Assembly: GCA_049510745.1 (NCBI GenBank) | Contig: JBEKYR010000019.1 | Coordinates: 26,697-90,696, forward strand | Origin: Verrucomicrobiota bacterium | GTDB lineage: Bacteria; Verrucomicrobiota; Verrucomicrobiia; Limisphaerales; Palsa-1400 | Reading direction: 5' to 3' | DNA: 64,000 bases | Shown here: piece by piece, positions 1 through 23,489 of the stretch | Numbering within the stretch: the stretch's first letter is position 1 | Layout: every line of letters starts with the position of its first letter | Position numbers and translations under genes: made by a program | Notes under the pieces: model-generated | Databases searched by the model: none | What the model saw: only the letters and a program-made list of their open reading frames with translations | Told to the model about the DNA's origin: nothing

Positions 1-822
1 GCGGGCGCGTCGGCCTGCACGGACGTCACGGGCTTCGGCCTCTTCGCCCATCTGCTGCGGATGCTGCGGCCGGGCGGACTGGGCGCGGAAATTTTCGCGG
101 AGACGCTGCCGGCCTTCGACGGCGCGATGGACGCCCTGCGGCAAGGCGTGATTCCGGGCGCGATTGAGCGCAACCGCGAGTATGCCGGCGACGCGCTTCA
201 CGTTGCGCCGGGCGTAAACGAGGCCGCGGTGAACCTGGGATTCGACGCGCAGACTTCCGGCGGCTTGCTGATCGCCGTTCCGCCGGAGCGGCTGGAACGG
301 TTGCGGCAATCTCTGGCCCGGCGCGGCGCCGGCCATTTTGTCATCGGCAAAATCGTTGCTGAAGCCGGACAGATTTATCTTTCAGCGGCCGGCAACAACA
401 CGGCGGAAATTTCAAGATTGAATTCAACCCTTCAACCGCGGAACATTGATTCCATGACAACACCAAAGAAAAATTCCCCGCCCCGCCACGGCGATTGCTG
501 CGCGGGCGCGGGCGAAACCGCAGCCGGTTCCGCCGCCGAATCAGAAAAGGCCTTTGACGCGCTGATCCGGTCGGTGCGATCGGCGGGCGCGCTGGATGAA
601 AAGACGAAGGAACTTATTCTGTTCAGCCTGGTCGTGGGCAGCCGTTGTCAACCATGTTTTGAGGCGCATCTGCGCAAGGCGCGCGAACTGGGCCTCTCGC
701 AGGCGGAACTGGACGAGGCGGCGTGGTGCGCCATCGCCCTGGGCGGCGCGCCGGTCATGATGTTTTATCAGGAATGCCTGGAGCGGATTCAATCGGGCAA
801 GGCGGACCGGGCGCGACCTTGA
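1..822 (+). CDS. selD: Selenide, water dikinase (5'-truncated) fused in frame to a C-terminal carboxymuconolactone decarboxylase/AhpD-like domain
   Basis: Frame is open from base 1. It contains the SelD motifs ACTDVTGFGLFAH and DAQTSGGLLIAV, then a linker, then ALDEKTKELI...CQPCFEAH (CMD/AhpD CxxC). tRNA-Sec lies 4.6 kb away. Confidence 0.9.
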   Translation, partial: AGASACTDVTGFGLFAHLLRMLRPGGLGAEIFAETLPAFDGAMDALRQGVIPGAIERNREYAGDALHVAPGVNEAAVNLGFDAQTSGGLLIAVPPERLERLRQSLARRGAGHFVIGKIVAEAGQIYLSAAGNNTAEISRLNSTLQPRNIDSMTTPKKNSPPRHGDCCAGAGETAAGSAAESEKAFDALIRSVRSAGALDEKTKELILFSLVVGSRCQPCFEAHLRKARELGLSQAELDEAAWCAIALGGAPVMMFYQECLERIQSGKADRARP

Positions 823-990: not shown

Positions 991-1236
991 GTGATTACAA
1001 CATTTAAAACCGACACGGTTAATTTTGGCGCCAAAGGCCAGGTGGTCATCCCCCGCCGTCTGCGCAGGGAATTTGAAATTGAGGAGGGGACGAAGGCGCA
1101 GGTGTATGTTGAGAACGGCCAGATTGTGCTCAAACCGATCACGTCGAAATTCATCAGAAGTTTGCGCGGCTCCTTGAAGGGCACCAAGGCGATGGAAACC
1201 TTCATGGCGGAACGGAAGCGGGAAAGGGAATTATAA
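991..1236 (+). CDS. AbrB/MazE/SpoVT-family antitoxin
   Basis: KGQVVIPRRLRREFEIEEG AbrB signature; overlaps the PIN gene (TAATG). Confidence 0.9.
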   Translation: MITTFKTDTVNFGAKGQVVIPRRLRREFEIEEGTKAQVYVENGQIVLKPITSKFIRSLRGSLKGTKAMETFMAERKREREL

Positions 1237-1637
1237 TGGCCACCAAGGTTCTGGACAGTTGGGCACTCATGGCGCTCTTCAATGAAGAACCCGCCGCCAG
1301 CGCGGTGGAAAAACTTCTGGCCCAAGCCGCTGCTGACCGGCACAAACTTTTGATGAGTGTGGTGAACTGGGGTGAAATTTATTATTCCGTGGCACGCGGA
1401 GCTTCCCGCGAAATGGCGGAACAAAAAGCCAAAGAAATTGCCGCCATGCCCCTTGAGATTGTGCCTGCCGATCTTCACCAGACTCACCAGGCTGCGATTT
1501 ACAAGGCCGCGTGCAGAATGTCCTACGCCGACTGCTTTGGCGCGGCCCTGGCCAAGATCAAAAACGCAGAGTTCGTCACCGGCGACCCGGAATTCAAAGA
1601 AGTTGAGAAGGAAATAAAAATCAACTGGCTGAAATAA
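1236..1637 (+). CDS. vapC: VapC-family PIN-domain toxin
   Basis: VLDSWA, NWGEIYY, SYADCF and VTGDPEF PIN motifs; 133 aa. Confidence 0.9.
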   Translation: MATKVLDSWALMALFNEEPAASAVEKLLAQAAADRHKLLMSVVNWGEIYYSVARGASREMAEQKAKEIAAMPLEIVPADLHQTHQAAIYKAACRMSYADCFGAALAKIKNAEFVTGDPEFKEVEKEIKINWLK

Positions 1638-1655
1638 TCGCAGCCCGAGAAAACT

Positions 1656-3950
1656 ATGGCATACGAAGAACTGGTCATTGATCTACTGAAGGCGGAGCGT
1701 GAGGAAGACGTTACTGCCGCGCTCACAGTCTATGGCTTGGAGAAATTCACTGATTCGAATTGGATTCCATATGGGGGAACGCTTTTTGAAAATAATTACG
1801 GATTGATAGGGACGCAACAGGCTGATTCGCTTGGCGCTCTAGTCGAAAAGGTCGTGAATTCGATTGATGCAGTTCTGATGCGGGAATGTCTAGCGAGAAA
1901 CCTCGATCCCAGAAGTAATCTTGTGCCGCGAACGATGAACGAAGCGGCTGAACAGTTCTTGAACATTCCAGAAGGCAATTTAGCCAAGCTGTCTCCAACA
2001 CAACGGACAGAACTGGCCGAAAAGAATATCAGCATCATCGTGACAGGGCAGAAGCCTGACGAAGGCAACCCATGCATCATAGTTGCTGACACCGGAGAGG
2101 GACAGAGGCCCGAAGACTTCAAAGACACCCTTGTTTCATTGCTTCGCAGCAACAAATGTTCTGTCCCGTTTGTTCAGGGCAAATTCAACATGGGCAGTAC
2201 TGGCAGCCTAGTGTTTTGTAGCCCGAACAAGAATTACCAGTTGATCATTTCACGACGTAACGCGGCAATTCCTACAGCCCGAAATTCAAAATGGGGATTC
2301 ACTTTAATCAGGAAGCGTCCTCCAATGAAGAATGAGAAGAATGAGCGTTATGAATATCTCGCGCCGAAAGGGAAGATCTGTGAACTCGATCTTGATGAAA
2401 TCCCAATTTTTCCAGACGCCGAAAATGTGCCCTACAAACGCCCAATCAAATGCGGGACGATCGTAAAGCTTTACGAGTATGACCTTCCGAGAAGTATAAA
2501 GACGATGGCGACCGCAGATTTCTACCGGGCTTTATCAACCAAGCTCTGGACGGTGGTCGTTCCGATGCGAATTTATGAGGCGCGGGGTTACAAAGGTCAC
2601 ACTCTTGAGAGCACGTTTTCTGGGATGAACATCCGGCTTGAAGATGACAAAGGTGACGTCCTGGAGGAAGGGTTTCCATGCAATTTTACTCTTAATATTC
2701 CGAAGGTCGGAATGGTTGATGGGCGCATTTGCCTATTCAAAAAGGACGCCGAAATCTCACGTTGGGTAAGTTCACGAGAGGCGATCATTTACACTATTAA
2801 CGGCCAGTCTCACGGCGCGCTGCCGAATGATTTTTTCCGACGCCAGTCAGTCAATCTCCCGTGGATACAGAAACAACTCTTGATCAACATTGATTGTTCG
2901 CGCCTCGACCAGCAATTGATCAACAGAATGTTTATGACCAGTCGCGACAGGCAGCGCGATGTTCAGGAAAAAGACTTCCTAGAGTCTGCCCTGGCCGAAT
3001 TTGTTCGCAAGCATCCGGGGCTTCGGGAGTGGAACGAGCGACGCCACAGAGAAACGGTCGAGGAACAGTTCGTGGAGGAATCAGAAACGATCGAACTATT
3101 TGAAAAATTAGTAGCGCAGAATCCAGCACTCGCTGAGATTCTCGGTGTTGGTCTCAAAATCAAAGTCCCAAAGCCCGGCGAACAGCCGACTTCAAAGTTC
3201 GAAGGCCAAAGATTCCCAACGTTTTTGAAACTCGAAGACGCCCATAACAACGACGATTTCGTCAAAAAGTGTCCCCAGAATTCCTATTGTCGCGTTACTT
3301 TATTAACCGATGCGGAAAACGATTATTTGGTCCGAGCGATTGAGCCGGGGAAACTTATCATCAGACCGGAAGCATTGGTCAAGAGTACTAGCCTCTACAA
3401 TGGCCGGTTGGAACTGCAACTAGCCCCGGAAAAAATGTACGATGTTGGTCACCGTATTGAAGTAAAGGTAATGTTAACCAGCCCGAACTCGACCGAGGGC
3501 TACTTTTCAGTTCGGTTTTGGCTGGAGATCGATTCGCCAGTGCAGCCAAAGAAGAGTCCTCCCAGCCCGCCCAAGCCGCCAAAAGTAACGACCGTGGCCC
3601 TGCCTGAAATCAAAGAAATCAAAAAGGATCAATGGGCCGAGGCTATCGAAATTACTTCCGACGATGATGTCGTGAAGATAATGAAGGACAACCAAGGGAC
3701 GACTTCTCTCGTGAACATGGATAATCGCCACTACCGCCGCTATGTTTACGCCAACCCCAAGCGAGAGCAGGAGATTAGAAACCTCTACAAGATCTCATCA
3801 ACAATCATGGGGCTTTGGCTGCTCGAACAGGTTGATAAAGGTGGTCTCCAGGAGGAAAACCGAAGATCGGTGAGTAACTCACTTGGCCGGCTTCTGCTTC
3901 CTTTGGTTGATTCACTAGGGAGCAAGTTGGCTGAATTAGAGCAAGGGTAG
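1656..3950 (+). CDS. GHKL (MORC/Hsp90/MutL-like) ATPase-domain protein with uncharacterised C-terminal region
   Basis: Bergerat motifs EKVVNSIDA, DTGEG and QGKFNMGSTG; visibly lower GC than flanks. Confidence 0.75.
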   Translation: MAYEELVIDLLKAEREEDVTAALTVYGLEKFTDSNWIPYGGTLFENNYGLIGTQQADSLGALVEKVVNSIDAVLMRECLARNLDPRSNLVPRTMNEAAEQFLNIPEGNLAKLSPTQRTELAEKNISIIVTGQKPDEGNPCIIVADTGEGQRPEDFKDTLVSLLRSNKCSVPFVQGKFNMGSTGSLVFCSPNKNYQLIISRRNAAIPTARNSKWGFTLIRKRPPMKNEKNERYEYLAPKGKICELDLDEIPIFPDAENVPYKRPIKCGTIVKLYEYDLPRSIKTMATADFYRALSTKLWTVVVPMRIYEARGYKGHTLESTFSGMNIRLEDDKGDVLEEGFPCNFTLNIPKVGMVDGRICLFKKDAEISRWVSSREAIIYTINGQSHGALPNDFFRRQSVNLPWIQKQLLINIDCSRLDQQLINRMFMTSRDRQRDVQEKDFLESALAEFVRKHPGLREWNERRHRETVEEQFVEESETIELFEKLVAQNPALAEILGVGLKIKVPKPGEQPTSKFEGQRFPTFLKLEDAHNNDDFVKKCPQNSYCRVTLLTDAENDYLVRAIEPGKLIIRPEALVKSTSLYNGRLELQLAPEKMYDVGHRIEVKVMLTSPNSTEGYFSVRFWLEIDSPVQPKKSPPSPPKPPKVTTVALPEIKEIKKDQWAEAIEITSDDDVVKIMKDNQGTTSLVNMDNRHYRRYVYANPKREQEIRNLYKISSTIMGLWLLEQVDKGGLQEENRRSVSNSLGRLLLPLVDSLGSKLAELEQG

Positions 3951-4126
3951 TTCAAGTCCGCGTCTCCGCGCCTTACAGAAGCTGCGGAATTGAGAGACAG
4001 GCTGGAAGCGCTGTCCCACGTTGAGGGGCATTGGGAACATCGAACTAAACACAAGCCTGGGTTGTTAAACAATCTTCACCCACTTTCAACCTTCACCTTG
4101 AGTTTTAGCCACCCTAAAGCGGATCC

Positions 4127-5011
4127 TCACTTTTGACACTCCTCATTAGACGTGGTTTGCGGCAGGGCAAAGCACGGTTCAATGGCGCCGCAGGTGGCGC
4201 ATTCCAGGCAGCGGATGCAGCCGGAAACGTTGACGGCCTGATCCACTTTCACACCCATCGGGCAGCGGCTGCGGCAGAGGTTGCATTCGACGCATTGCTG
4301 CGGATTGAACCGGAGATGAAACAGGCTCAACCGGTTGAAGAGCGCGAGCAACCCGCCGAGCGGACAAAACACGCGGCACCACGGCCGGTGAATGAAAAGC
4401 GCGGCCGCAAGAAAGGAGAGCAAAATGCCGCTCTTCAACCCGCTCATCAGCCAACCGTTGCCGGCAAGCAGGCTTTGCACGGAGTAAGGCACGCCGGCTT
4501 CCAGCGCGCCGGCCGGACAAAGCCGGCAAATGGAAATGACCTGCCTTTCAAATGGAATGCCGTTGAAACCCAGAATCAGCGGCAGAAGAATCACCAATCC
4601 TACCAGAACGAAGTAACGGCCGTAACCGGTCCAGGACGGCAGGATGATTTTCCGGGTGGTGATTTTGCCGAGCAAGTCCTGGAGAAAACCGAACGGACAA
4701 GCCCAGCCGCAAACGATGGAACCGCCGGCCGCGCCGACGAGCACGAGCACGCCGATCAATAAATACGGCACTTCCCCCGCCACTGGCAGCAGCGCCGCGT
4801 AGTTGGCCATCACACCCACCGGGCAGGCGAAGGCCGAGAGCGGGCACGAGTAACAGTGGAACACGCAGCCGGGAATGCCGTGCAGCCACCGGCCCAGCGG
4901 CGCGAGCCACAGGCCGAGAAAACCGGTTTGCACCCAGGGACGCCAGCGCGAGAGTTTTCGTCCGAGCGCCGCCGGCTTCCATTCAGGGCAATTGGGAACG
5001 GGACATTCCAT
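4127..5011 (-). CDS. Membrane 4Fe-4S binding protein (NapH/MauN-like polyferredoxin)
   Basis: CGWACPFG and WCRVFCPLG motifs, C-terminal CVECNLCRSRCP and CIRCLECATC, several TM segments. Confidence 0.9.
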   Translation of the reverse strand: MECPVPNCPEWKPAALGRKLSRWRPWVQTGFLGLWLAPLGRWLHGIPGCVFHCYSCPLSAFACPVGVMANYAALLPVAGEVPYLLIGVLVLVGAAGGSIVCGWACPFGFLQDLLGKITTRKIILPSWTGYGRYFVLVGLVILLPLILGFNGIPFERQVISICRLCPAGALEAGVPYSVQSLLAGNGWLMSGLKSGILLSFLAAALFIHRPWCRVFCPLGGLLALFNRLSLFHLRFNPQQCVECNLCRSRCPMGVKVDQAVNVSGCIRCLECATCGAIEPCFALPQTTSNEECQK

Positions 5012-5021
5012 GGGAACAGGT

Positions 5022-5040
5022 CGGCCACGCCACGTGGCCG
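5022..5040 (-). promoter_or_regulatory. Putative SECIS hairpin 3
   Basis: CGGCCAC-GTGGC-GTGGCCG, a perfect 7-bp stem with the loop at +21..+25 from the TGA at 5056-5054. Confidence 0.75.
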
Positions 5041-5044
5041 GAAT

Positions 5045-5419
5045 TCATCTTATTCAGGTGGGACAGGGCGTTTTTGCGCCGAGGTCCACGCGGATTTTCC
5101 ACGCCGGCGGCTGGGTATGGGCCTGTTGTTTGGCCCAGCGGTCAAGCGCCTCGCCGGGATTGGCCACGGCATCGAGTTTCGGCGGCGGCGGCGGCGCGAC
5201 TTGGTCCGGGTATTGCAAACCGCCGGAGGAGAAGGCTTTGACCAACTGCGTTTCCCACGCCGTGTTTCCGTCCGTGGTGTCCACGTTGGTCAGATGCCGC
5301 GCGCCGCTAAACAGCAGCGCCGCGCCGGTCAGCGCGACAACCAAGCCGGACCAGAAATCGTGGTCTTCCCGCGCGCGCGACGCGCGATTGACCGGTGGCT
5401 GGGGGACTCGCTTGAACAT
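5045..5419 (-). CDS. Putative small membrane selenoprotein, 124 aa, ending ...KTPCPT-U-IR (CxxU; Sec122)
   Basis: ATG at 5419, one TM helix, Cys-Pro-Thr-TGA, SECIS-like hairpin at conserved spacing, directly downstream of selC. Without recoding the ORF ends at 5054. Confidence 0.7.
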
Positions 5420-5437
5420 GCTACGGATTGGGGAAAA

Positions 5438-5534
5438 TGGCGGAGGTGGATGGGAATCGAACCCACCTGGGACTTTGTTGAGTCCCACGCTGGTTTTGAA
5501 GACCAGGAGCGCCACCAGGTCGCCCCACACCTCC
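5438..5534 (-). tRNA. selC: tRNA-Sec (anticodon UCA), 97 nt
   Basis: Acceptor GGAGGTG/CACCTCC, G discriminator plus encoded CCA, anticodon arm CTGGT-CTTCAAA-ACCAG, long variable arm TGGGACT/AGTCCCA, T-loop TTCGATT. Confidence 0.95.
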
Positions 5535-5694
5535 CCGGCGGACCGCCGCGCCGCTGGCCAATGGCAGGCGTGATTGATTTCCGGCGGGCCGCATCACACA
5601 GGTATATTGACAGATTGGAGCGGATAACTCAATCCGAATTTAGTCGCCAGCCGCGCCATAAATGGCAGACTGTTTGCACGTCAGGAAAGAATTT

Positions 5695-6531
5695 ATGGAC
5701 ATTCGAAAAGCCGTCATCACCGCCGCCGGTCCGGGCCAGCGGACGCTGCCGCTGCAAACGCTGGTTGACCGCGACGGCAAAACCAAGACCGCGCTCGGCA
5801 TCATCGTGGAGGAGGCGCTCAATTGCGGCGCGGAGGAAACCTGCGTGGTGGTCCATCCGGGCGACGCCGAGGCCTACCGCGCCGCCGCCGGGCCGCACGG
5901 CAAGCGATTGCAGTTCGTGGAGCAGGAGAAGGCGCTGGGCTACGGCCACGCCGTCTGGTGCGCCCGCGCCTTCACCGGATCGGAGCCGTTTCTGCTCCTG
6001 GTCGGCGATCATCTTTATCTGAGCCGGGAGAAACGCAGTTGCGCGCGGCAATTGGTCGAGGTCGCCGCGGCCGAGGCCTGCGCCGTTTCCGCCGTGCAGG
6101 CCACGCACGAAAGCAAACTGCCCTATTACGGCGTGGCGGGCGGGCGGCTGGCGGAGAACCGCAAAGGCCTTTACCTCATTTCCGAGGTGCTGGAGAAACC
6201 GACCCCGACCGTCGCCGAACAACGCCTCATCGTTCCCGGATTGCGCGCGGGCCATTATCTTTGTTTTTTCGGGATGCACGTTCTGACGCCGGCGGTGATG
6301 GATTTGCTGGGGGCGGAAATGGCCGCCGGCCAGGCGGCCAGCCTGAGTCAAACACTCGCCAAGCTGGCCAGCCGCGAGCGCTATCTGGCCTGCGAATTAC
6401 AGGGACGCCGGTTTGACATCGGTTTGAAATACGGCCTGCTGACCGCGCAACTGGCGCTGGCCCTGAGCAGCCCGGCCCGCTCCGAAGTGCTCGCCGGACT
6501 CGTCGAACTCCTCGCCCAGGAACCCCATTGA
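5695..6531 (+). CDS. Sugar-phosphate nucleotidyltransferase (GalU-like)
   Basis: [27 protein letters not shown] and EKP motifs. Confidence 0.85.
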
Positions 6532-6539
6532 TCACGCGC

Positions 6540-9500
6540 ATGGCCAGCCCGCTCCTCGACATCATCACCTCGGCGGACGCGAGAATTCGCAACCAGCCGC
6601 TCGACGCCTTTTGCGCCCGCGCCCCGGCAGATGAACTGCTGGCGGCCTGCGCGGAACTGGAGGGCTTCCGCCGCCGCAGCGACAATCTTTACGAGCGCGT
6701 CCGCGCGTTGTTCTTCCTTTACGCGATTCACCGTTTTCATCTGCCGGGGAAACTGCCCGCGGGCGCGGACGGCATGATTCCCTTCAAAGGATTCGAACAT
6801 CTGCTGCACCGCCGGTTTGAAGAGGCGCTCGACCAGTTTCTTTCCGCGCAAAAAAGCGGCGGCCCCAGCGACGCCCTTTGCAGCGCGCTGGCCGCCGTGT
6901 ATCAACGCATCGGCTTTCAGACGCTGGCCGACCAGGTGCGGCGCAGCGTCCGTTCGGTGCGCGGCAACCAATGGATGTTCCGCATGGGCCATCCGGAGGA
7001 TCATCCGTTGCGCGTGCGCCCGGAACTGCTGCAACGCGGCGCGGACGGCGCCTTCCCCGTGCTGCGCGAACGCACCCCGGTGCGGATGGATTTGAGCCAT
7101 TCGGGCTGGAGCGACATTTTCTTTCTCGGCATGGATTTTCCCGAAGGCGCCCGCGTGCTCAACGTCTCCATTGACCTGGGCGTTCACGGGCGCGACCAGG
7201 CGGCGCAGCCGCCGGTGGAGGCCTGCTTGCGGGTGATTGACGAACCGGTTTTGCGCCTGACCAGCGTGGACCTCGGCGCCACGGCGGAGATCAACAATCT
7301 GGCCGAGGTTTTTGATTTCGCCCGCGACTACCTCGGATTGCTCAAAGCGGCCGTCATCGCTGCCGGCATTGTGCCGCCGGGCATTGAAGGTTCGGGACTC
7401 AATCTGGCCGACTTGCTCGCGCGGGTCGCCGGGGCCGGGCGCGGCCTGGAATTGGTCAGCCACGTCAACGATATTCCGAAAGGCTCGCGCCTGGCGGTCT
7501 CGACCAACCTGCTCGCCTCGCTGATTTCCGTCTGCATGAGGGCCACCGGCCAGGCCAAGTCGCTGACTGGCGCGCTGGCCGAGGAGGAACGGCGCCTGGT
7601 GCTGGCGCGCGCGTTGCTGGGCGAATGGCTCGGCGGCTCGGGCGGCGGCTGGCAGGATTCCGGCGGCGTGTGGCCGGGCATGAAACTCATTTGTGGCGTG
7701 ACCGCGACGGAAGGCGATCCCGAATTTGGCATCAGCCGGGGCCGGCTCATGCCGGCGCACCGCATTCTGGATCGCCACGACGTTTCGTCCGAGACGCGCG
7801 AGCGTTTGCAGCAAAGCCTCGTGCTCGTCCACGGCGGCATGGCGCAAAACGTCGGGCCGATCCTCGAAATGGTGACGGAAAAGTATCTGCTCCGTTCCGC
7901 CGCCGAATGGGCCGGACGGCAGCAGGCCATCGGGTTGCTCGATGAAATCGTGTCGGCGCTGCGCGCCGGAGATGTGCGCGGGGTGGGCGCCCTGACCACG
8001 CGCAATTTTTGCGAGCCGATCCAAACCATCATTCCGTGGGCCAGCAACGCCTTCACCGAATCGGTCATCGCGTCCGTGCGGGACGAGTTTGGCGCGGATT
8101 TCTGGGGGTTCTGGATGCTCGGCGGCATGTCCGGCGGCGGGATGGGTTTCATCTTTGAGCCGCAACGCAAGGCGCGGGCGCAGCAGCGGTTGCAGGAAAT
8201 CATGTCGCAAACCAAGCGCGAACTGCAACACGCGCTGCCCTTTGCCATGGAGCCGGTGGTCTATGATTTCGCCATCAACGAGCGCGGCACCTGGGCGGAC
8301 CTGCTGCGCGGCGACGAGGCGTTGCTGCCGCGCGGCTACTACGCGCTGCATGTTCCGCGCTGGCTGCGGGCCGATCCGCAGGCGCTGACCAGGGCGCAGC
8401 GCGCCGAACTGGACAAGTTCGGCGCCGCCTGCCGCACGCGAACGGAATTGTCCGGCATGATGCAGACGCTCTTCGACCGCCTGCTGCCCCGGCTCAAATC
8501 CGAGGGCGGCTCCCAGCAAAGCCTGGCGGAATTGCTCGAACAAAACGGCTTCGACCGCGTGCAGCATGAGCAGATTCGCGACGATTTGAAAGACGGCCGC
8601 ATCGGCTTGGCCCAAAACCGCCTGCCCGCCAGCGCCGACATCAAGGACGTGCAGGATGCCGATGTGTTCAATGCCACCGGGCCGTTGGCGGAGGAATTGC
8701 GCCAGGCCGGCCTGGCCGCCCTCGCCCGCGGCGAACTGGCGGTGGTCACGCTGGCCGCCGGCGCGGGCAGCCGCTGGACGGAAGGCGCTGGTGTGGTCAA
8801 GGCGCTGCATCCGTTCTGCAAATTCAACGGCCTGCACCGGACGTTCATCGAAACGCACCTGGCCAAGAGCCGCCGTATCGGCCAACTGGCCGGCCAGACG
8901 CTGCCGCACTTCTTCACCACCAGCTACCTGACCCACGCGGCCACCGAGGAATTCCTGCGCCGGAAGAAAAATCATCATTATCCCGGACCGCTGCTCCTGT
9001 CGCCCGGCAGGTCCATCGGGCTGCGGATGATCCCGATGGTGCGCGACCTGCGCTTTCTCTGGGAGGAGATGCCGCAGCAACGGCTCGACGAGCAGCAGCA
9101 AAAAGTGCGCGACAGCCTGCGGGCCGCGCTCCTCAACTGGGCCCGTTCGGCGGGCGAGGGCGGCGATTACACCGACAATCTCCCGGCCCAATGCCTGCAC
9201 CCGGTGGGACACTGGTTCGAGGTGCCGAACCTGCTGCGCAACGGCGTGCTGGCGCGCTTGCTCGCCGAACGTCCGCAGTTGCGGCACCTGATGTTGCACA
9301 ACATCGACACGCTCGGGGCGGACGCGGACCCGGCGCTCTTCGGTTTGCATCTGGCGCAGGAGGGCTGCCTGACGTTCGAGGTCATCACGCGCCGGCTGGA
9401 GGACCGCGGCGGCGGCCTGGCCCGCGTTAATGGCCAGGTGCGGCTGGTGGAAGGACTGGCCATGCCGCGCGAGGAGGATGAGTTCCAACTCCGCTTCTAC

Positions 9501-9860
9501 AATTCAAACACCTGCTGGATCGACATCGACAAACTGCTGGCGGTTTTCGGCTTGAGCCGGGCCGACCTTTCCAAGGCGGAACACGTCGCCGCCGCCGTGC
9601 GCGCGCTGGCCGCGCGCATGCCGACCTACATCACGATCAAGGATGTCAAGAAGCGCTGGGGCCACGGCCAGGAAGACGTGTTCCCGGTCAGCCAGTTTGA
9701 GAAACTGTGGGTGAACATGACCGCGTTGCCGGAAGTGAAAACGCGCTTTGTCGTGGTGCCGCGCCTGCGGGGACAACAGCTCAAGGACCAGGCGCAACTG
9801 GACGGCTGGCTGCGCGATGGCTCGGCCGATTTCGTCAACCAGCTTTGTGCCTGGCCGTGA
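6540..9860 (+). CDS. Bifunctional GHMP sugar kinase / UDP-sugar pyrophosphorylase fusion
   Basis: [22 protein letters not shown] and GGMSGGG (GHMP); C-terminal [24 protein letters not shown] and QFEKL (UDPGP family). Confidence 0.85.
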
Positions 9861-9910
9861 ATACGGATTGATATTGCAGTAAGCCCTTCGATTTGCTAAT
9901 AGCCTGTCTA

Positions 9911-12010
9911 ATGGCAAAGCAAAAGACTGGTGGCTTATCATGGCGCTGGCTGGGAACCGCCGGGGTGGCTTGCTGGACGTGTGCGCTGTTGGTTGTGCTT
10001 TGCTCGGAAAACAGGCTTCGCGCGGCTGATTCTCTTCTTTCCGGTTCTCCGTCCTCAAACGCCGTCATGGCTGCGCTGGAGTATCAGGAAACAGACTCTG
10101 GCGTCATCAACTGGGGCGTTTCCCTGACGCCGCGGACCAGTCCTTTCAAAAAAGAGCCGGCGGCGGCTTCGGGCAAAATCATTCGCGGCGTTTTGAATTT
10201 CGGCGCCGATTCCAGCAACTCCATTCCCTTTCTCTGGCAGTGCCAGGCGGGAAAACTTTACCTCGACCTCAATCGCAACCAGGATTTGACCGACGATCCC
10301 TCCGGCCTGTTCTTGGCGCGCGCCGCGAAGCCGGATAATTACCAGACCTTTGCGAACGTCCACCTGCTTTTCAACACCGCTTCCGGCAGGTGCCGGGTGC
10401 TGGCGGACCTCTCCTTCTGGGACTACAGTGCGCCGCCAATTTGCAGCTTCGCGGTGCGCTCGTTCTGGCAAGGCAAACTGAGGTTGCAAGGGCGGGATTG
10501 GCAGGTGGGCATCGTCCCGAATATCCTGGACCGATCGGGCTTGTTCGAGAACAGCCGGTTGCTGCTGCGTCCCTGGGATAAACGAAGCCAGCCGTTCAAC
10601 GCGGATGATGGGTTGCTCGCCACTGTTCCCTTCTCGCGGAAACTTTTTGTGGATGGCCACGCCTATCAACTGGAGTGCGTCGCCCGTTCGCAAGACGGCG
10701 AAGCCAGGCCCGCGCTCCAATTCACGGAACAATCCGTCGCGCTGGGCGAAGTGAAAATCACCGGCCAATTCATCCGCCGCCTTGTTCTGCAGGGCGAGGC
10801 GTTCCTGGTGGTGCTCGATCAGCCGGCAGGCGTCGTGAAAATCCCGGCCGGCAGCTATCACCAGCCCGAGATCCTGCTCGAACAAGACGGCGTCGCGGCC
10901 TTCTCCCGCAATTCCGGCCAGTGGCAAATTGGCCGGCAGATTTCCGTGCGCGACAAGGCACAGGTGGCATTGAACGCGGGCGGGCCGTTGACCAATTCCG
11001 TCGCCACCGGCCGCCACGGTCAGGATTTGCGTCTGGATTATTGCCTGCTCGGCGTGGGCGGCGAAACTTACCAACTGGCCAGGCAAGATCGCTCCAAGCC
11101 GCCGGAGTTCGCGGTTTACAAGGGCGGAAAAAAAATCGCGTCCGGCAGATTTGAGTTTGGCTGAGGCAACACCTGCTCGCACTCATGGCGAGTGCCTCTC
11201 ACCGCCGGCGGCAAACTGTCCCTTGTGGCTTCGTCCGACCTCGGAGCGCTCGGTGCGAAGGAAGGTCCGGCGGTCATCTACGACTGGGTGTTGCCCAGCC
11301 TGGCGCCGCTGTTGCTGCCGTGGCTGGTCATTCTGGGATTGCTCACCTTGAAACGGAATCGTTGCGCGGCCGCGTGGTGGATTTGGCTGCCGCTCGGATA
11401 TGTGATCGCGTTTACGTTGGCGCCGCTGGACATCATGCCCGCGGGAACAGATTTTTTCCTGGATGTCATCGCGGCGCTGGCGGCGGGGCTGGGCGCGGTC
11501 TGGCTCCTGACAGATTATCTCCGGCGGCCACATCGGTTCGTTACGTTTCTGTGCCTCCTGCTCGCCTTGGCCGGTTTCAGCGCGCTGGCCTTTGTGTCCG
11601 CACAAAGCTGGAGTTTCACGTCGGAAACATTTGTGGCCGGCATCGTTCTGGCCGTGGGCGTGGTGGTCAGTGCGGTGGCGTTGAGTCTGGCCGGGCTGAT
11701 CTGCCGCGGCCGTTATCGTCGCGTCGGCCTTTATGGGTGGCTGCTCCTCTTGCTGGCCGTCATCTGGCTGGTGATCACCGGGCCTTTCTTTTTGTTCGCG
11801 CTCATCGCTTCAGGCGGAAGAGTGTCTTGGGGCGGATTCTTTGTTCCCGTTTTTGCGTTGGTGACGCTCCATTTCGCCACCCTGCTGCCGTTCCTGATCC
11901 TGTCCTCGGCCAGCCCGTTTTACCGCCAACGGCTCAAGGCCCTGCTGCACGTCACACCGGAAGCGCCGCCCGTGCTGGCGCCTTTGCCGGATGCCGGTTT
12001 AAAAACTTGA
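9911..12010 (+). CDS. Putative selenoprotein A, ~699 aa: exported domain, FEFG-U-GNTC (Sec418), then a multi-TM domain
   Basis: ORFs 9893-11164 and 11192-12010 are in one frame, separated only by the TGA at 11162-11164. The motif and hairpin recur in the next gene. Confidence 0.8.
11179..11195 (+). promoter_or_regulatory. Putative SECIS hairpin 1
   Basis: GCACTC-ATGGC-GAGTGC, loop at +21..+25 from the TGA. Confidence 0.8.
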
Positions 12011-12041
12011 ACTCGATGAACACCAAGCCAACCATGATGTT

Positions 12042-13313
12042 ATGAAACTTTCCAAACAACTGTTCCTGGCCGGAATGGTTCTCGCCGGCGCCGCCTTCGC
12101 GCAATCCGAGCAATGGCTGGAATACCACACCGGCGCCGAGGGCCGCGCCTACCAGCAGGTGGAACTGACCACCAATCCGCCCCCCGGCGTCGCTCTGCCG
12201 AAGTTCAATGCGCCGCCCTATTTCGCCCGCTGGCTCACGCCGATGGACCCCGCCGGCGGGCGCTGGCTCTGCCTGGACCGCACGCGCAAGTCCGGACCCT
12301 ATGACCGGCTGTTCTTTGACAACAACGGCAATGGCCGGCTGGACGACAAATCGCCCCTCCCGGCGCGGCTGGATTCCTCCTTCGCCTATTTTCCGCCAGC
12401 CCGCGTTGTGTTCAAGGGCGAGGACGGGCCGATCACCTATCATCTTGTCTTCCGCTTCTATCAATACGAAAAGAATCCCCCGCAATTGCTGGCCTCCTCC
12501 GCCGGCTGGTATGAAGGTCTGGTCAATTTCGACGGCGCGAAAAAGCGCATTCAACTCATCGACGGCAACGTCAACGGCACGTTCAACGACGTCGCCCCGG
12601 ACCCGTATGACTGCGACCGCGTCCAAGTCGAGGGCGACAAGACCAGCGAACGGTTTTTGGGCCGGATGCTGGAAGTGGACGGGAAGTTTTACCGGATCGA
12701 AGCCGCCCGCGACGGCGCGTTCGTCAAAGTGCAGAAGGCGGAGAACGTCACCCTCGGCCAGGTGCGTGTGCCGGAAAACATTTCCGAATTCGCCGCCTTC
12801 GGCCCGAACGGCCATTTCGTGCGCACACCGGCGGACGGCCAATTCACCTTGCCGGCGGGCCATTACCGGATTTTCCACTGGACGATCAGCCGCAAGGATG
12901 AAAAGGGCGCGCCGTGGACGCTCTCAGGCTATAATTTTCCCAAAACCGCCACCTTCGAGGTCGCCGCCGATAAGACCGCCTTGGTGCAAATCGGTGAGCC
13001 GGTGCAAGCCGTGCTCAAGGCGGCGGAGGGCGCCAAGCGTCAAGTCGATTTCAGCCTCAGCTTCGTGGGCCGGCAAAAGGAATCCATCGAGATGCTGTGC
13101 GACGGCCAGCGCCCGCGCGGGCCGAAATTGACGTTGGCCAACAGCGACGGGACGCTGTGTTATACGAACACTTTCGAGTTTGGATGAGGCGGCGTTTGCT
13201 CGCTCTCATGGCGGGAGCCTAAAAATGTGCGGCGTCCGTTGGTTGGCGGCGTCAAAATTTTCAGCCCGTTCCAGGTGCTGACGAGTCCGTTGACGCTCGC
13301 GCCAAAAAAATAA
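12042..13313 (+). CDS. Putative selenoprotein B, 423 aa, secreted, FEFG-U-GGVC (Sec382)
   Basis: Signal peptide. The TGA at 13185-13187 is followed by 41 open codons to TAA 13311-13313, 12 nt before the next ATG. Same motif as protein A. Confidence 0.8.
13202..13218 (+). promoter_or_regulatory. Putative SECIS hairpin 2
   Basis: GCTCTC-ATGGC-GGGAGC, loop at +21..+25; compensatory changes relative to hairpin 1. Confidence 0.8.
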
Positions 13314-13325
13314 ACTGATCATCGC

Positions 13326-16300
13326 ATGAAAACGACACGGCAATTCCTTCTGGTCTCTGCCGCTTGGGCGCTCCTGGGCGTCAGCACGCACGCCCAGACG
13401 CTGGAGCGGGTGGGGGTTCAAAAAGTGGCGGACACAGCCACGAACGCTGGCGCGCAAAAACTTACCGGAACGGTCACCGACGCCGCCGGCCATCCCCTGG
13501 CCGGCGCGACGGTGGAGTATTGGCGTTACGAGGGAAATCGGCTCCTGGCGAGTCCCTTGGAATTGATCGGGCAAATCACTACGGAAACGAACGGCGCTTT
13601 TGAATTCCAACTCTCGCGGGCGGCCGGATTCCTCCTGGCACGAAAGCCGGGCCTGGCCCCGGCCTGGATACAATTGGGCCAGCCGTATCCTTCCGTCGGT
13701 GACAGGGGAGAGAATTTGATGCTGACTCCGCCCGCGGCGCTGGCGGGCGTGGTGGTGGACGAAGCGGACAAACCTGTTCCAAACGCCCGGGTTTCCGTGG
13801 CCATTGCCATCTCCGAAATGTCGCAGGAGGAGGGAGCGCGAAGTCTTAATTATTTCACTGGCAAACCCGCGCGCGATTGTTTTGCCGCCCGCACGGATGC
13901 CGCCGGCCGTTTCCGCATCGAGAATTTTCCGACCAATGGCACGGCCGCCCTGACCGTTCAGGCGCCGGGAAAAGCTCTGCGCCAATCACCGCAGGAAGCC
14001 GGCGGCATGGACTCGCTGCCTTGGCGCGCGGGCCAGCAAGACATCAAATTGGTCGTGGAACCGGCCGGCAGCGTCGAAGGAAGGATTATCGTCGAGGGCA
14101 GCAATCAACCGCCGCCCGTCGCGCGGCTGACGTTGCAGCCCGATGGGCCGGGCTTTGCCGCGCTTGACGAGCGCGAGCCGGCGCCATCCGGCGCGGACGG
14201 CGCGTTCCAACTCAGCGACGTGCCCGCCGGTTCTTATCACATTCATGCCGTCTTTGGAACCAATGCCGTTCCGGAATGGGTCGCAGACATGGTTCCAGTT
14301 TCGGTTGAGTCCGGCCAACCCACGCGCGGCGTGCAGGTGACTGCGGTGCGCGGCGGCGTGCTGGAAGTGGCCGTGCTGGGTCAAAATGATCGCAAACCAC
14401 TGGCGCAAATTATGGTCAATGCCGTCAAGGAGAATTTTCAATCCGCCGCCAGTTCGGACAGCAACGGCATCGCTCTCCTGCGGCTGCCGCCTGGAGATTA
14501 TCAGGTGGCGGCGTTTCGTGAATCCATGCCCGCGAGCCAGACTCCCGCCAGCGTGGAAGCCGGCAAAACCAACCGCGTGGAGATTGAAATCGCCCCGCCG
14601 AGAAAAATCACCGGCATCGTCCGCCAACCGGACGGCCAGCTGGCGGCGGGGTTGCGGGTGAGATTGGTGGGTGGGTTTGGCCCCGGGGCGGGCGAAGTCA
14701 AGACCGATCCCGGCGGCCAGTTTAGTTTGGAATGGAATCAGCGCCGATTCGGACAGAACGACACGACTGCCTGCGTTCTCGTGCGGGACGCGGAACACAA
14801 TCTGGCCGTGGCGCAGGACATTGACGAAGACACCGGCCCGCTCGACCTGAAACTCGCGCCGGGGCTGACGCTGGCGGGCCGGGCGGAATCCGACGGCAAA
14901 CCCCTCACGAACGCGGCCGCCGCGCTGATTTTCTTTACCGGCAGAAGGGGCATGCACCTCGCCGGATTGAGCCGCGAAACCAACACGCCGGGCCGGTTTG
15001 AAATTCCCGCCATTCCGCCCGGACGAAAATACGGCGTCCTGGTCTCCGCTCCGGGTTACGGACAGAAGGCGAATTACGATGTGAATGCCGCCGCCGAAGG
15101 TGGCCGCATGGAACTGGATCCCTTTGAGCTTAAACCTGCCAACCTCAAACTCGCCGGCCAGTTGCTCGACGCGGACGACAAGCCGGTCGCAGGCGCCTAT
15201 GTGAATCTTTACGGAGAGGGCCAGCCCAGTGCAAACGCGCGCACGGACCGCGAGGGTCGCTTCCGCTTCGAGCATGTCTGCGAAGGCCCGGCTCGAATCT
15301 CGGCCAACAAGCAGAATTCATTCGGCAATATGTCGGCGGAAGGCGGCGACACCAACGTCGTTCTGCGGCTCGGTCAAACCCTCAACAACTCCCCGGGTTC
15401 CACCGCCCATAAACTCAAAGGCACTGTGACCGACCCCGACGGCAAACCCGCCGCCGGCGCGCAGTTGGCGGTGTTTCCGTCCTTTGATGTGAGTTGGACA
15501 AAGACCGCGACCAACGGCGCCTTCAGCCTCACTTGGTCGCTCCAGCCCTGGCAAATGCAGCAGTCAGGCGGCGCCGCGCTGCTGGTGGCCCGCGACCCGG
15601 CCCGCAATCTGGCCGCCACCGAAGAGTTGCCGGAGGAAACCACCAACCTCGACGTGAAATTGAAACCGGCCCTGACCGTCACCGGACTGGTTGAAAAAGA
15701 TGACGACTCTCCACTCGCGGGCGCGCAGGTCGGTGTCTGGCTCAAGGCGGGCAACATGTACGACCAGTTGAACCAACAAATGGCTGGGACCGACGCCCAA
15801 GGCCGCTACGAAATCAAGTGCCTGCCGCCGGATGCGTCATACATTGTTTTCGCCACCGCCAGCGGCCACGGTCGAAGCCAGCAGCAAGTTCAGAACGATT
15901 CCGAAACAAACCGCGTGGAACTATCGCCCTTCGTCCTCAAGCTGGCCGACCGTTTTTTGGCCGGCCAGGTGCTCAACGAAAATGACAAGCCCGTTTCCGG
16001 CGCGAACGTGTCGTTGAATGGCGAAGACCAGCCCCAAGCCAGCATGACCACCGACAGCAAGGGCCGCTTTCACTTCCAGGTTTGCGAAGGGCAGGTCCGC
16101 CTCTTCGCCAATTCCCCCCAAGGCGGTGAATTCGCGCAAGCCACCGCCGAAGCGGGCGACACCAACGTCGTGATGACTTTGAGTTCCCAGGCGGGGAATA
16201 TCCGCGAGACACCGCACCGCGCCTCGCTCAAAGGCAGTCCGCTGCCGGACTTGGCGGCCGTCAATCTCGCCGGCGACGCCGCCCCCGCCGGCCAGCCGGT

Positions 16301-16631
16301 GTTGTTATGCCTGTTCGACGCGGGCCAGCGTTCGTCGCGACACGTCGTCCACCAGTTGGATGGACAGGCCCCCGCGCTGCGGCAGCAAGGCGTCACGGTG
16401 CTGGGCGTTCAAGCCGCGGTCACCAGCGATGACATACTCAACGAATGGAAAAGCGCCAGTCCGGTTTCATTCCCGCTCGGACGCGTGGCGGAGAAATCCG
16501 AAAAATCAAAATGGGCCTTGGCCGTTCCGGCCTTGCCGTGGCTGATCCTGGCCGACGCCCATCATCGCATCATCGCCGAAGGCTTCCCGCTCGACGACCT
16601 GGACGCGCAGATCAAAACCCTGGCCAAGTGA
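13326..16631 (+). CDS. Secreted protein with tandem carboxypeptidase-regulatory-like beta-sandwich repeats and a C-terminal degenerate thioredoxin/TlpA-like domain
   Basis: Signal peptide, repeated G.V.D..GKP..GA.V and TD..GRF units; C-terminus LKGSPLPDL...PVLLCLFDAGQRSS...ALPWLILAD. Confidence 0.75.
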   Translation: MKTTRQFLLVSAAWALLGVSTHAQTLERVGVQKVADTATNAGAQKLTGTVTDAAGHPLAGATVEYWRYEGNRLLASPLELIGQITTETNGAFEFQLSRAAGFLLARKPGLAPAWIQLGQPYPSVGDRGENLMLTPPAALAGVVVDEADKPVPNARVSVAIAISEMSQEEGARSLNYFTGKPARDCFAARTDAAGRFRIENFPTNGTAALTVQAPGKALRQSPQEAGGMDSLPWRAGQQDIKLVVEPAGSVEGRIIVEGSNQPPPVARLTLQPDGPGFAALDEREPAPSGADGAFQLSDVPAGSYHIHAVFGTNAVPEWVADMVPVSVESGQPTRGVQVTAVRGGVLEVAVLGQNDRKPLAQIMVNAVKENFQSAASSDSNGIALLRLPPGDYQVAAFRESMPASQTPASVEAGKTNRVEIEIAPPRKITGIVRQPDGQLAAGLRVRLVGGFGPGAGEVKTDPGGQFSLEWNQRRFGQNDTTACVLVRDAEHNLAVAQDIDEDTGPLDLKLAPGLTLAGRAESDGKPLTNAAAALIFFTGRRGMHLAGLSRETNTPGRFEIPAIPPGRKYGVLVSAPGYGQKANYDVNAAAEGGRMELDPFELKPANLKLAGQLLDADDKPVAGAYVNLYGEGQPSANARTDREGRFRFEHVCEGPARISANKQNSFGNMSAEGGDTNVVLRLGQTLNNSPGSTAHKLKGTVTDPDGKPAAGAQLAVFPSFDVSWTKTATNGAFSLTWSLQPWQMQQSGGAALLVARDPARNLAATEELPEETTNLDVKLKPALTVTGLVEKDDDSPLAGAQVGVWLKAGNMYDQLNQQMAGTDAQGRYEIKCLPPDASYIVFATASGHGRSQQQVQNDSETNRVELSPFVLKLADRFLAGQVLNENDKPVSGANVSLNGEDQPQASMTTDSKGRFHFQVCEGQVRLFANSPQGGEFAQATAEAGDTNVVMTLSSQAGNIRETPHRASLKGSPLPDLAAVNLAGDAAPAGQPVLLCLFDAGQRSSRHVVHQLDGQAPALRQQGVTVLGVQAAVTSDDILNEWKSASPVSFPLGRVAEKSEKSKWALAVPALPWLILADAHHRIIAEGFPLDDLDAQIKTLAK

Positions 16632-17058: not shown

Positions 17059-17278
17059 GCCCTCCATTACGGCAGAACAGCGGAAATCTTGCAAGCCGTC
17101 CTTACGCGCCGTCTGTTTTGACGCATTTCGCTTGTGTTCCTTCGGAAAAACGGCCAAAAGGGTGGCCGGGAATGAAGGTCCATTTTGTTGCCGCGGACAG
17201 GCGTCCAGTCCCGGTTGGTTTTTAGGCTTGCCGGGGTGAAGAGGGACACGTTGCCTTCCCGACGAAATGAAAACGTCT

Positions 17279-19105
17279 ATGAAAACAACAAAAGCATTAT
17301 TTGGAATTTTCGCCATTATGGCGGCTCTCGCGATTCAGACCCAGGCCCAAACTTTTCTCACCAACGGTCTGGTGGCGTATTACCCTTTCAACGGGAATGC
17401 GAATGATGCGAGCGGCAATGGCAATAACCTTGCCAACCATGGCGCAACGCTATGCGCGGACCGATTCGGCAACCCAAATCAAGCATACAGTTTCAATGGG
17501 AGCAGTTATCTTGGGTCTTCAACTGTGCCGTTAAGCCAAATTGACAACTGGACTGTGGTTGCATGGATAAATCTGGCATCGCTCAATCAAGTGGAAGCGT
17601 ATGTTGTCTGTATGGGTTATGATGATGGCGGTAGTGGCAATGGATATGCTTTGGGTGTCGCGGGAGGAAACCAGTTGGGCGCGTTTTTTGGCGGCGTAGG
17701 CGGTTTTCCCGGCGGATATGTGTTTCCCTCCACCAACCAATGGTATCAGGTTGTGATGTTGCGAAGTTCTGGATCAACAATGTTCTATGTAAATGGAGTT
17801 TTGACAACAAACGGCATTCTAAATACGCCGGGAACGCCAACTTCCTTTGAAATCGGTTCAGCCACTGGCATTCGGTTTTTTAACGGAGCAATTGACGACG
17901 TTCGCATTTACAACCGTGCCCTCTCGGCTTCAGAAGTTCAGGAACTTTACCAATACGAGTCGGTGCTCAAATCTTATCAGGCCACTGCCACCGCAGAGGT
18001 AATCAACGGGTTTGTGACGGGTGTAACCATTACCTATCCCGGTTATGGCTACACGAACACGCCGACCGTGACAATCACCGGTGGTGGCGGCAGTGGGGCG
18101 CAGGCCGTGGCCGTGGTCAGCAACGGGTTCGTCGTGGCCATCGACGTTTTGGATGCGGGCGCCGGCTACACCAACACGCCACTAATCGTCATCGACCCGC
18201 CTTTGTATCCTTATCCAGCCACAGCCGCCGCCAACGTTGTCAACGGGTTTGTGGTCGGCGCCACCATTCTCTATGGCGGTTCTCGCTACACGAACACGCC
18301 CACCGTGAAAATCATCGGTGGCGGCGGCAGTGGGGCGCAGGGCGTGGCCGTGGTCAGCAATGGGTGCGTCGTGGCCATCGACGTTTTGGATGCGGGTTCC
18401 GACTACACCAACACACCACTGGTCGTCATCGACCCGCCTTTTATTCCCAATCCAGTTTTGGGCGTCGTTGAACGCATGTCGTCCCTTGCGTTTTCCAACC
18501 TGACCCTTGGAGGTGTTTATCAATTGCAGCAGTTCGCCGGGGGGTATTATTGGACAAACCAGCCGGTCAACTTCACGGCTACAAACTCTGTCTATACGCA
18601 AGTGGTTTCTGGCACGATGGACAGCGGAGAATACCGCCTGGTGCTCAGTCCAGTTCCGGCCCAGGCATTCGCTGTGCCGGAGGTGGTCAATGGCTTTGTC
18701 GTCGGCGCAACCGTGACGAGCGGCGGCTCCGGCTATGTCACCAACCCGACGGTCAGCTTTGTTGGTGGCGGGGGCATCAATGCCGGGGCGGTTTCCCAAA
18801 TCTCCGGTGGCGTGGTGACGAGCATCACCATCACCAACGCAGGCATCGGTTACACCAACACGCCGATAGTTGAAATCGACCCGCCGCCCGCCATCGTCGT
18901 GTCACCCACCATCCAAATGGTGATGCGGATGGATTCCGCCGATCTGGCTCCGTATGACAATTATCAGATTCAATTCACACCTGCCCTCGGCGGAGCTTGG
19001 CGGAATTGGGATGGCGGATTATTCAGCCCGACGGACGTGACGAATTCACAATACCTTTTAGTCACGAATACGACAGCGTTTTTCCGCCTGCAATATGTGC
19101 CGTGA
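17279..19105 (+). CDS. Secreted LamG-like jellyroll protein with repeated V..I...G.GYT..P.V units
   Basis: GLVAYYPFNGNANDASG...FNGAIDDVRIYNRALS; three repeat blocks; C-terminal FFRL. Confidence 0.85.
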   Translation: MKTTKALFGIFAIMAALAIQTQAQTFLTNGLVAYYPFNGNANDASGNGNNLANHGATLCADRFGNPNQAYSFNGSSYLGSSTVPLSQIDNWTVVAWINLASLNQVEAYVVCMGYDDGGSGNGYALGVAGGNQLGAFFGGVGGFPGGYVFPSTNQWYQVVMLRSSGSTMFYVNGVLTTNGILNTPGTPTSFEIGSATGIRFFNGAIDDVRIYNRALSASEVQELYQYESVLKSYQATATAEVINGFVTGVTITYPGYGYTNTPTVTITGGGGSGAQAVAVVSNGFVVAIDVLDAGAGYTNTPLIVIDPPLYPYPATAAANVVNGFVVGATILYGGSRYTNTPTVKIIGGGGSGAQGVAVVSNGCVVAIDVLDAGSDYTNTPLVVIDPPFIPNPVLGVVERMSSLAFSNLTLGGVYQLQQFAGGYYWTNQPVNFTATNSVYTQVVSGTMDSGEYRLVLSPVPAQAFAVPEVVNGFVVGATVTSGGSGYVTNPTVSFVGGGGINAGAVSQISGGVVTSITITNAGIGYTNTPIVEIDPPPAIVVSPTIQMVMRMDSADLAPYDNYQIQFTPALGGAWRNWDGGLFSPTDVTNSQYLLVTNTTAFFRLQYVP

Positions 19106-19131
19106 GCGGCACCGTTACGGGCGGGACGGCC

Positions 19132-19839: not shown

Positions 19840-20044
19840 AAGTTTGATACGGTTGTTCATCGGGCAACAGATACCGCCGATGGTGTTTTGTTGCAAACTA
19901 TTTTGAAAAATCTGTTTTGAATAATCATCGCGGGTGGGCCGGAGCCGGGATTTTTTCCGTTCCAGAAAACCGGGATGCGCCCCGGGTTCGCCGATCTGTT
20001 CCTCCCGGCTTGCCACAGCGGGAGAATGCGGTAATCTTTCCGCG

Positions 20045-23274: not shown

Positions 23275-23489
23275 AAGGAGCGAAGCCGGCTTCACACCGG
23301 CGTCATTGAGAACTCGACCAATCTCACCAGTTGGAGCATCCTCGCGCCGCTGTCGGTGACAAATGTTTCCGACCCGGGCAATGCCTGGTTGCTCCAGGCG
23401 AATTCTCCGGCGCAGTCCGCACCGGAGTATTTTCGGATTCACTAGATGTGGCCCGGCCTTTGAAATCCGGGATCAAGAAGCAGTCAAAT

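Follow-up and report, generated by a model that had tools for sequence, protein, structure and literature searches.

We have analyzed a 64,000-nucleotide stretch of bacterial DNA (the window; contig JBEKYR010000019.1, positions 26697-90696), whose relatives are titled Verrucomicrobiota, Limisphaerales. It contains three in-frame UGA codons, each followed at the same distance by an RNA hairpin that is very probably a selenocysteine insertion sequence (SECIS), an element for the insertion of selenocysteine (Sec, U). The codons, hairpins and surrounding genes are summarized in Table 1. Genes B and C are paralogues, both with the motif FEFG-U-GxxC, and gene A is unrelated to them. The genes selA and selB directly precede the window (contig 22523-25899), and selD runs into its start. 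The tRNA-Sec gene selC, the sole UCA tRNA among the 76 of the genome, stands directly upstream of gene A, and this arrangement is conserved. All of the Sec machinery is found within 10 kb.

Table 1. Features of the locus, with proposed assignments. Positions are those of the window unless marked as contig positions.
Feature	Position	Strand	Description
Sec-UGA, gene C	11162..11164	+	Residue 418/699, motif FEFG-U-GNTC; 281 codons open beyond; TGA in all homologues
Candidate SECIS 1	11179..11195	+	6-bp stem; loop AUGGC 11185-11189 = +21..+25, G at +23
Sec-UGA, gene B	13185..13187	+	Residue 382/423, motif FEFG-U-GGVC
Candidate SECIS 2	13202..13218	+	6-bp stem; loop AUGGC 13208-13212
Sec-UGA, gene A	5054..5056	-	Residue 122/124; C-terminal CPT-U (CxxU)
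Predicted true stop, gene A	5045..5047	-	UGA here; TAA in 20/24 close homologues
Candidate SECIS 3	5022..5040	-	Entirely 3' of the gene A stop; 7-bp stem, loop GUGGC 5033-5029
Gene A	5045..5419	-	124-aa candidate selenoprotein ending CPT-U-I-R; no Pfam or NCBIfam family
Gene B	12042..13313	+	423-aa candidate exported selenoprotein, all-beta; Sec in last, immunoglobulin-like (Ig-like) domain
Gene C	9911..12010	+	699-aa candidate selenoprotein; start codon inferred
tRNA-Sec (selC)	5442..5534	-	Anticodon UCA; RF01852, 70.7 bits
Membrane 4Fe-4S protein	4127..5011	-	Fer4_5; NapH/MauN-like, below cut-off; 3' of gene A in relatives
Gene D	13326..16631	+	1101 aa, CarboxypepD_reg repeats; no in-frame UGA; conserved neighbour, 24/27 loci
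selD 3' part	1..822	+	Cys-type, fused to C-terminal AhpD/CMD domain
Double-cubane cluster	contig 17103-22471		Directly upstream of selA; NF040772 (double-cubane reductase, score over cut-off) plus two paralogues, activase, class I methyltransferase

The first-pass annotation of this DNA had placed a RUGGC loop at +21 to +25 after all three UGA codons. Positions, stems and loops match that description, and two differences that it listed between the stems, an A-U to U-A swap and a U-A to U-G change, are both correct. None of the stops that it used as controls (822, 9860, 16631, 19105 and 24965) has the hairpin; stop 19105 has the loop word ACGGC exactly at +21, with a stem of just 3 bp. A second in-frame UGA in gene A, three codons past that at 5054, had been overlooked. 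When the RNA is folded from +12, as the ribosome would expose it, the hairpins are the minimum-energy structures at all three sites. The energies from +12 are -9.1 kcal/mol (z = -2.3) at the 11164 site and -8.4 kcal/mol (z = -2.2) at the 13187 site, and the 5054 site has a fold energy of -15.2 kcal/mol (z = -2.7). In an Rfam search of positions 4000-14000 the tRNA-Sec was the only match, with no SECIS family.

Hairpins with an RTGGC loop and a stem of at least 6 bp occur 165 times on 11.25 Mb of strand in the source genome, or about 1.5e-5 per position. Among gene-like ends, a RYGGM loop on a stem of at least 6 bp is found at +21 after 3/2086 TGA, 0/983 TAA and 0/747 TAG codons, and the three matches are exactly the three window sites. 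Among such ends the element is not as common after TAA or TAG as after TGA. Widening the offset to +20 to +22 adds one site, by chance.

The UGA codon is conserved wherever the proteins are found. In 60 relatives there is one TGA in every match to gene A, and in every match to B or C except one short partial sequence. A search of the phylum gave TGA in 22/22 matches, which were found in 14/401 genomes. We also searched metagenomes with a pattern that ignores the hairpin and admits TGA, TGC or TGT alike, giving at least 110 distinct sites from at least 119 loci. Among the matches listed, all 105 sites scored as family members have TGA, and neither of two TGT matches was scored as a member. Among the database homologues listed for B, 120/120 terminate at FE[FY]G. 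For gene A, 62 of 81 representatives end at CPT, the rest being mostly fragments or other frames, and C-P-T is invariant at the end of 40/40 aligned members. The families occur in only one of the 37 genomes without SelD in a set of 61, and that genome is 64% complete and has tRNA-Sec. An ab initio read-through scan gave 273 candidates and was uninformative, since gene boundaries dominate among the matches listed.

Codons +1 to +4 after the UGA vary silently yet retain G-G-x-C; the sequence beyond the UGA is evidently under selection as protein. Modeling of B is consistent with this. The read-through model has a predicted local distance difference test score (pLDDT) of 93, with the UGA inside an Ig-like domain (residues 298-402), and the truncated model, for which a different alignment was used, falls to pLDDT 55-80 at its end in that domain. 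In the models, read-through completes the Ig-like domain of B. Foldseek gave no meaningful match, and a sequence search of the PDB gave none. In the ESM Atlas, B falls in uncharacterised clusters, mostly of Planctomycetota and Verrucomicrobiota, and there is no usable match for gene A.

Could a SelB-type signal lead to insertion of a different amino acid, either Cys by a tRNA-ReC/SelC*-like species, or Trp through general recoding? The available text of two papers describes SECIS-dependent decoding of UGA as Cys (PMC13582414) and reassignment of UGA to Trp in some Verrucomicrobiota (PMC13462651). Here, however, the single UCA tRNA scores as tRNA-Sec, selA and selD are adjacent, and TGA ends 2086 of 3816 gene-like frames. 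With one UCA tRNA, and TGA as the commonest ordinary stop, there is no general recoding of UGA, and we consider a reading as either Cys or Trp to be highly improbable.

The hairpin is retained along with the codon. In the relatives it is present at 24/24 FE[FY]G-TGA sites and 11/11 CPT-TGA sites, two of them at +20 and one having a 4-bp stem. Among the hairpin-blind metagenome matches listed, 98/105 have a stem of at least 5 bp at +21. Of the other seven, five are imperfect, with a single mismatch or a stem that is weak, and in two the hairpin comes one codon later. Family members at two loci (L289 and L310) have one extra codon and the loop at +24, and are natural spacing variants. In an alignment of 66 sites the six core pairs are kept in 395 of 396 cells. 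There are two-sided changes at 5/7 pairs, and the covariation score was reached by 0/500 shuffles and by no slide.

Within the coding sequences the covariation extends to silent positions. At 124 SWRV sites Tyr TAC goes with Val GTA (78) or GTG (11), and His CAC with GTG (31/32). Arg is CGA in 115, a codon with 3.7% usage in the source genome, and Ser is always TCA or TCG; GTA, CGA and TCA have 1-4% usage there. In variants such as RWPE the closing pair is flipped and the protein is altered. More distant homologues have the stem at the same place and read SGR, SGG or LGQ instead of SWR, because their loops are GGGUC, CGGCG or CGGGC. The earlier suggestion that the SWR peptide partly reflects a constraint on the RNA can thus be put more strongly, since the silent-codon covariation and these homologues indicate that the peptide is largely imposed by the RNA. 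In the gene A family the hairpin is non-coding, lying after the real stop, and it slides by 1 nt. Its offset in 27 rows is +21 in 21, +20 in two and +22 in one, and the remainder comprise two distant members with imperfect stems and one probable chance match. Because it sits 3' of the true stop in gene A, the hairpin is not a protein artefact.

These data bear on whether the UGA codons are simply ordinary stops, with the hairpin having another job (in mRNA stability, processing or translational coupling) or arising as a by-product of the conserved SWR peptide. The weak genome-wide enrichment of the motif by itself would fit such a reading, as would the annotated ends of the database homologues at FE[FY]G; moreover B and C are paralogues, so two of the three sites are not independent. 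Yet every family site has TGA, never TAA, TAG or a Cys codon, and the codons that follow are under protein selection, with the UGA splitting the Ig-like domain. Silent-site covariation, and the persistence of the hairpin in non-coding DNA of the unrelated gene A, are likewise contrary to ordinary termination. A terminator is ruled out, as the sense strand has no U-tract after the hairpin, which also speaks against another role for the structure. We therefore give ordinary termination a very slim chance.

RUGGC had been put forward as the recognition code, and this must be revised, since the loop at +21 differs among homologues of these proteins. In the pooled sites G is found at +23 in 187/187 stems, and +24 is G in 182. 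The loop is RYGGM in 174 of the 187 coding sites. The constant feature, judged from these sequences, is the G at +23 and not RUGGC, and RYGGM is the form of an N-N-G-(G/U/C)-N pentaloop that prevails locally. It had also been proposed that the loop is a UGG triloop closed by an R-C pair. This is predicted where R is G, as at the 5054 site, but not otherwise; positions 21 and 25 are A.C in 107, G-C in 62, C-G in two and some other combination in 16 (n = 187).

A covariance model (R1), which contains coding signal and was used to score only 150 candidates per genome, recovers the three window sites by construction. The next match in the source genome has E = 0.65. The model recovered 0/6 genomes having NGG-loop variants, and found nothing at E ≤ 0.1 in 14 genomes with other SelB/SelD types and 11 Sec-negative relatives. 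It did find one unrelated small gene beside selD in a relative genome (G036), with the hairpin at +21 and E = 0.02. This 74-aa frame (L391:2563-2787) contains G-C-G-U and lies before a methyltransferase/double-cubane/selD cluster. It has no NCBIfam match, and is a candidate for a further selenoprotein family.

The hairpin had been called the SelB-binding element of the lineage. It is very likely the SECIS of this genome, given the adjacent Sec machinery, the universal UGA and the covarying stem, but it does not extend to the lineage as a whole. In the same order there are ten genes for Sec-containing SelD (Sec-SelD), two of them even within the same family, that lack a RYGGM hairpin at +21. 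The loop is GU at +33/34 in nine of these and CGGCG at +20 in the tenth. A second Sec system of the order (loci L068 and L070-L077) has a separate SelB clade, Sec-SelD and the GU loop at +33/34. In SelB trees, calculated by a fast method with long-branch warnings, the 10 sequences from Sec-SelD genomes separate from the 20 from family-bearing genomes with 100% local support. RYGGM and NGG loops are mixed within the group of 20, which rules out RYGGM as the mark of its own SelB clade, and the SelBs of both types have the same recognition-helix motif. By its C-terminus the SelB is matched to SelB proteins of solved structure (E = 6e-20), and the S-R-K-aromatic motif of those structures is retained in its last winged helix; this fourth winged-helix domain (WH4) looks canonical in sequence. 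The solved entries are 1lva and 1wsu, from Moorella thermoacetica.

An alternative is that the entire lineage uses RUGGC at +21 as its SECIS code, with a SelB of changed specificity to read it. RYGGM does dominate the coding sites, and is common to unrelated genes in the source genome and in G036. Against this, the Sec-SelD genes of the same order use different hairpins, the two loop types intermingle on the SelB tree with a shared recognition-helix motif, and WH4 has the appearance of a canonical domain. A lineage-wide code is therefore unlikely.

We conclude that the hairpin is a real SECIS of a compact Sec module, with a probability of about 0.93. The position, the stem covariation, the invariant G, the universal UGA and the adjacent selABD and selC are established directly; from analogy with known systems we infer contact with SelB and insertion of Sec at these codons. 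A number of points weigh against the conclusion. At the 13187 site the full 45-mer has its energy minimum in another structure. Across the genome, if no coding filter is applied, there is just a weak excess, with seven TGA codons having the motif at +21 compared to 2.3 expected, and other offsets reaching up to 6, so that the real proof is comparative. The shuffle controls ignore relatedness and four off-register rows of 70 were omitted from the alignment, and the pool of 195 sites includes loci found with the covariance model itself. Loop type does not cleanly follow the SelB clades, requiring three changes in the group of 20. There is no Cys homologue, the usual supporting criterion, among the matches listed in relatives, phylum, metagenomes and databases. 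The fold match for B is generic Ig-like (VIA-align, Z = 9.6, residues 298-402), with the other domains barely covered. The rule of a G in the first two loop positions, as stated in the available part of PMC13188914, is broken at 11164 and 13187, where G is third in the 5-nt AUGGC loop unless A.C closes a triloop. The physiological role is read from the gene neighborhood. Lastly, none of six families of known selenoproteins searched for in the source genome was found, leaving nothing on which to calibrate.

In that search SelD was of the Cys type, and the FdhA, MvhD/FlpD, AhpC-TSA, HdrA and HesB-family matches had no in-frame TGA; the one TGA that the HdrA search gave marks where one gene ends and the next begins. 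SelD lacks an in-frame stop in all 23 of the family-bearing genomes where it was found. Genes A, B and C may therefore be the whole selenoproteome of the genome.

On this conclusion, a complex of SelB, GTP and Sec-tRNA would bind the apical loop through its last winged-helix domain, as do the SelB proteins of Escherichia coli and Moorella by analogy, and the invariant G at +23, on a stem of 6-8 bp, would be the main base read. The stem starts ~14 nt past the UGA, and so should lie just outside the ribosome, and SelB would then deliver Sec to the UGA in the A site. In gene A the second UGA, just 11 nt from the loop, would terminate translation. Within coding regions the RNA would dictate the peptide (SWR), and in gene A the hairpin sits after the stop. 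Two forms of gene A are ruled out, one with U-x-x-U and one fused in frame to the 4Fe-4S gene, because most relatives have TAA as the second codon and the spacer is not of constant length.

The products would be two unrelated, uncatalogued selenoprotein families, both apparently Sec-only. In the FE[FY]G-U-GGxC family B is probably exported and C membrane-anchored, with Sec and Cys on a loop of the modeled Ig-like domain. C has an N-terminal hydrophobic segment, a beta-rich part and about six C-terminal membrane helices. Export of A and B is suggested by their N-terminal sequences; a simple hydropathy scan of the two found no segment above threshold. The CPT-U family appears to consist of small proteins coupled to the membrane 4Fe-4S protein. 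Their motifs and neighbors would suit an envelope redox or metal-handling relay, a role to which we give slightly less than an even chance. Gene A and the 4Fe-4S protein might pass electrons across the membrane to the U-x-x-x-C centers, and the relay might be linked to the cytosolic double-cubane reductase. Some relatives carry a form of B in which Laminin_G_3 domains are fused on beyond the Sec. There are also further FE[FY]G-U paralogues in relatives (L111:14655-16148 on the minus strand, L034, L040 and L042), for example with MPFG-U-DGTC, and up to five per genome.

The double-cubane reductase NF040772 is present in 24/25 family-bearing genomes, in 0/12 with the other Sec system and in 0/11 Sec-negative relatives, where the groups were chosen by the authors and related genomes are not independent. 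The one exception also lacks SelB, SelD and tRNA-Sec matches. The presence of the families is patchy within genera. A wider reading is a self-contained selenium module that Verrucomicrobiota, and probably Planctomycetota, have acquired and lost in one piece. It would comprise a dedicated SelB clade, a SECIS of fixed geometry and a Cys-type SelD serving solely the Sec-only surface proteins, which, together with the double-cubane [8Fe-9S] reductase, activase and methyltransferase, would act in a hitherto undescribed pathway from envelope to cytosol, of a reductive or organometal kind. We offer this joint proposal tentatively, and rather doubt it in its entirety. If it is true, the Sec-only surface proteins of the module would be invisible to standard Sec/Cys searches.

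The gene order in relatives is C-B-D-A-4Fe4S facing selD/selB, whereas in the source genome gene A, the 4Fe-4S gene and selC stand apart from C-B-D. The whole SelD (contig 25896-27518) is of the Cys type with an N-terminal Cys-rich extension and the C-terminal AhpD/CMD domain, and the same architecture is found in G036. Several database entries of the gene A family have an N-terminal extension that is mistranslated tRNA-Sec. The C-terminal domain of gene D (16060-16631) has a thioredoxin-like look, without CxxC and without a Pfam match. Between selD and the 4Fe-4S gene (991-3950) lie a small gene pair, AbrB-like and PIN-like by appearance, and a 764-aa gene of lower GC content, which suggests a local insertion. 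A GalU-like nucleotidyltransferase and a 1106-aa sugar-kinase/pyrophosphorylase fusion (5701-9860) separate the selenoprotein genes, and are outside the module in related loci. Genes at 45662-50042 resemble a gas vesicle cluster by appearance (GvpN-, GvpF/L- and ArsA-like).

The SECIS is unusually well determined. Its compensatory changes, silent-site covariation and non-coding copy amount to a mutational map outside the model organisms, and show how an mRNA structure can dictate protein sequence. Databases cut both families at the UGA, and discovery pipelines rely on Cys homologues, which these proteins appear to lack; such genomes therefore seem to maintain Sec machinery without a use for it. 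Through their tight linkage to this module, the double-cubane reductases, which have no known physiological substrates, are seen in a second context that is independent of the first. Our literature searches, whose scope did not extend to BSepDB data, RefSeq Sec annotations or subscription journals, found no description of these families or of the element. When UGA is translated as Cys, A, B, C and five distant homologues match no family of NCBIfam 20.0 or Pfam, and no matching entry was seen in parts 1-2 of 3 of the 119-family selenoprotein table (Table 1, PMC13188914).

How does the element compare with known systems? The bacterial consensus (Zhang and Gladyshev 2005, as given in the available part of PMC13188914) is a single stem-loop 3' of the Sec-UGA, with a stem of 4-16 bp and a loop of 3-9 nt, 16-37 nt from the UGA, with an energy of -7.5 kcal/mol or lower and G in the first two loop positions. 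The 20-nt spacing, stem, loop size and energies of the window hairpins all fall within these limits, with a 6-8 bp stem, a 3-5 nt loop and a conserved G followed by G or U. The rule for G holds at 5054, where G-C closes a UGG triloop. The spacing here differs in being nearly fixed, with G at +23 across unrelated genes. The position 3' of an in-frame UGA together with selA, selB, selC and selD, the conservation at the level of RNA and the invariant apical G are those of the functional class of bacterial SECIS. In the E. coli fdhF SECIS, U17, G23 and U24 are described in the accessible text of PMC8659212. As there, the upper stem starts shortly past the ribosome footprint and has one essential apical G. 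Unlike it, the G is three nucleotides farther out (+26 with the U of UGA as 1), the stem is unbulged with no counterpart of U17, and GG is usual in place of GU.

The catalogued CxxU and UxxC redox selenoproteins, in the same partial source (PMC13188914), are similar to gene A in its CxxU and to B and C in having Sec near a conserved Cys. They differ in that the spacing here is UxxxC, the fold is Ig-like and not thioredoxin, and no Cys homologues were found. Closer to gene A is the SECIS of SaoC, described in the accessible part of 10.1101/2022.07.06.499078 as a triloop containing G on a 7-bp stem free of mismatches, located beyond the stop codon of a gene whose Sec is near the C-terminus. The SAO system of that source has a conserved nine-gene sao cassette, and a scan of 21 proteins encoded here and at related loci matched none of the Sao families. 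Its selenoproteins are unlike the Ig-like exported and membrane proteins and the CPT-U protein found here, and the loop is at +18 in SaoC compared to +21. It is alike in the tight linkage of the selenoprotein cluster to NF040772 double-cubane proteins. Atypical classes of SECIS are acknowledged in the available text of PMC12013277 and PMC13326102. The SECIS of this locus is thus a variant of a known element, and the proteins that it serves are uncatalogued.

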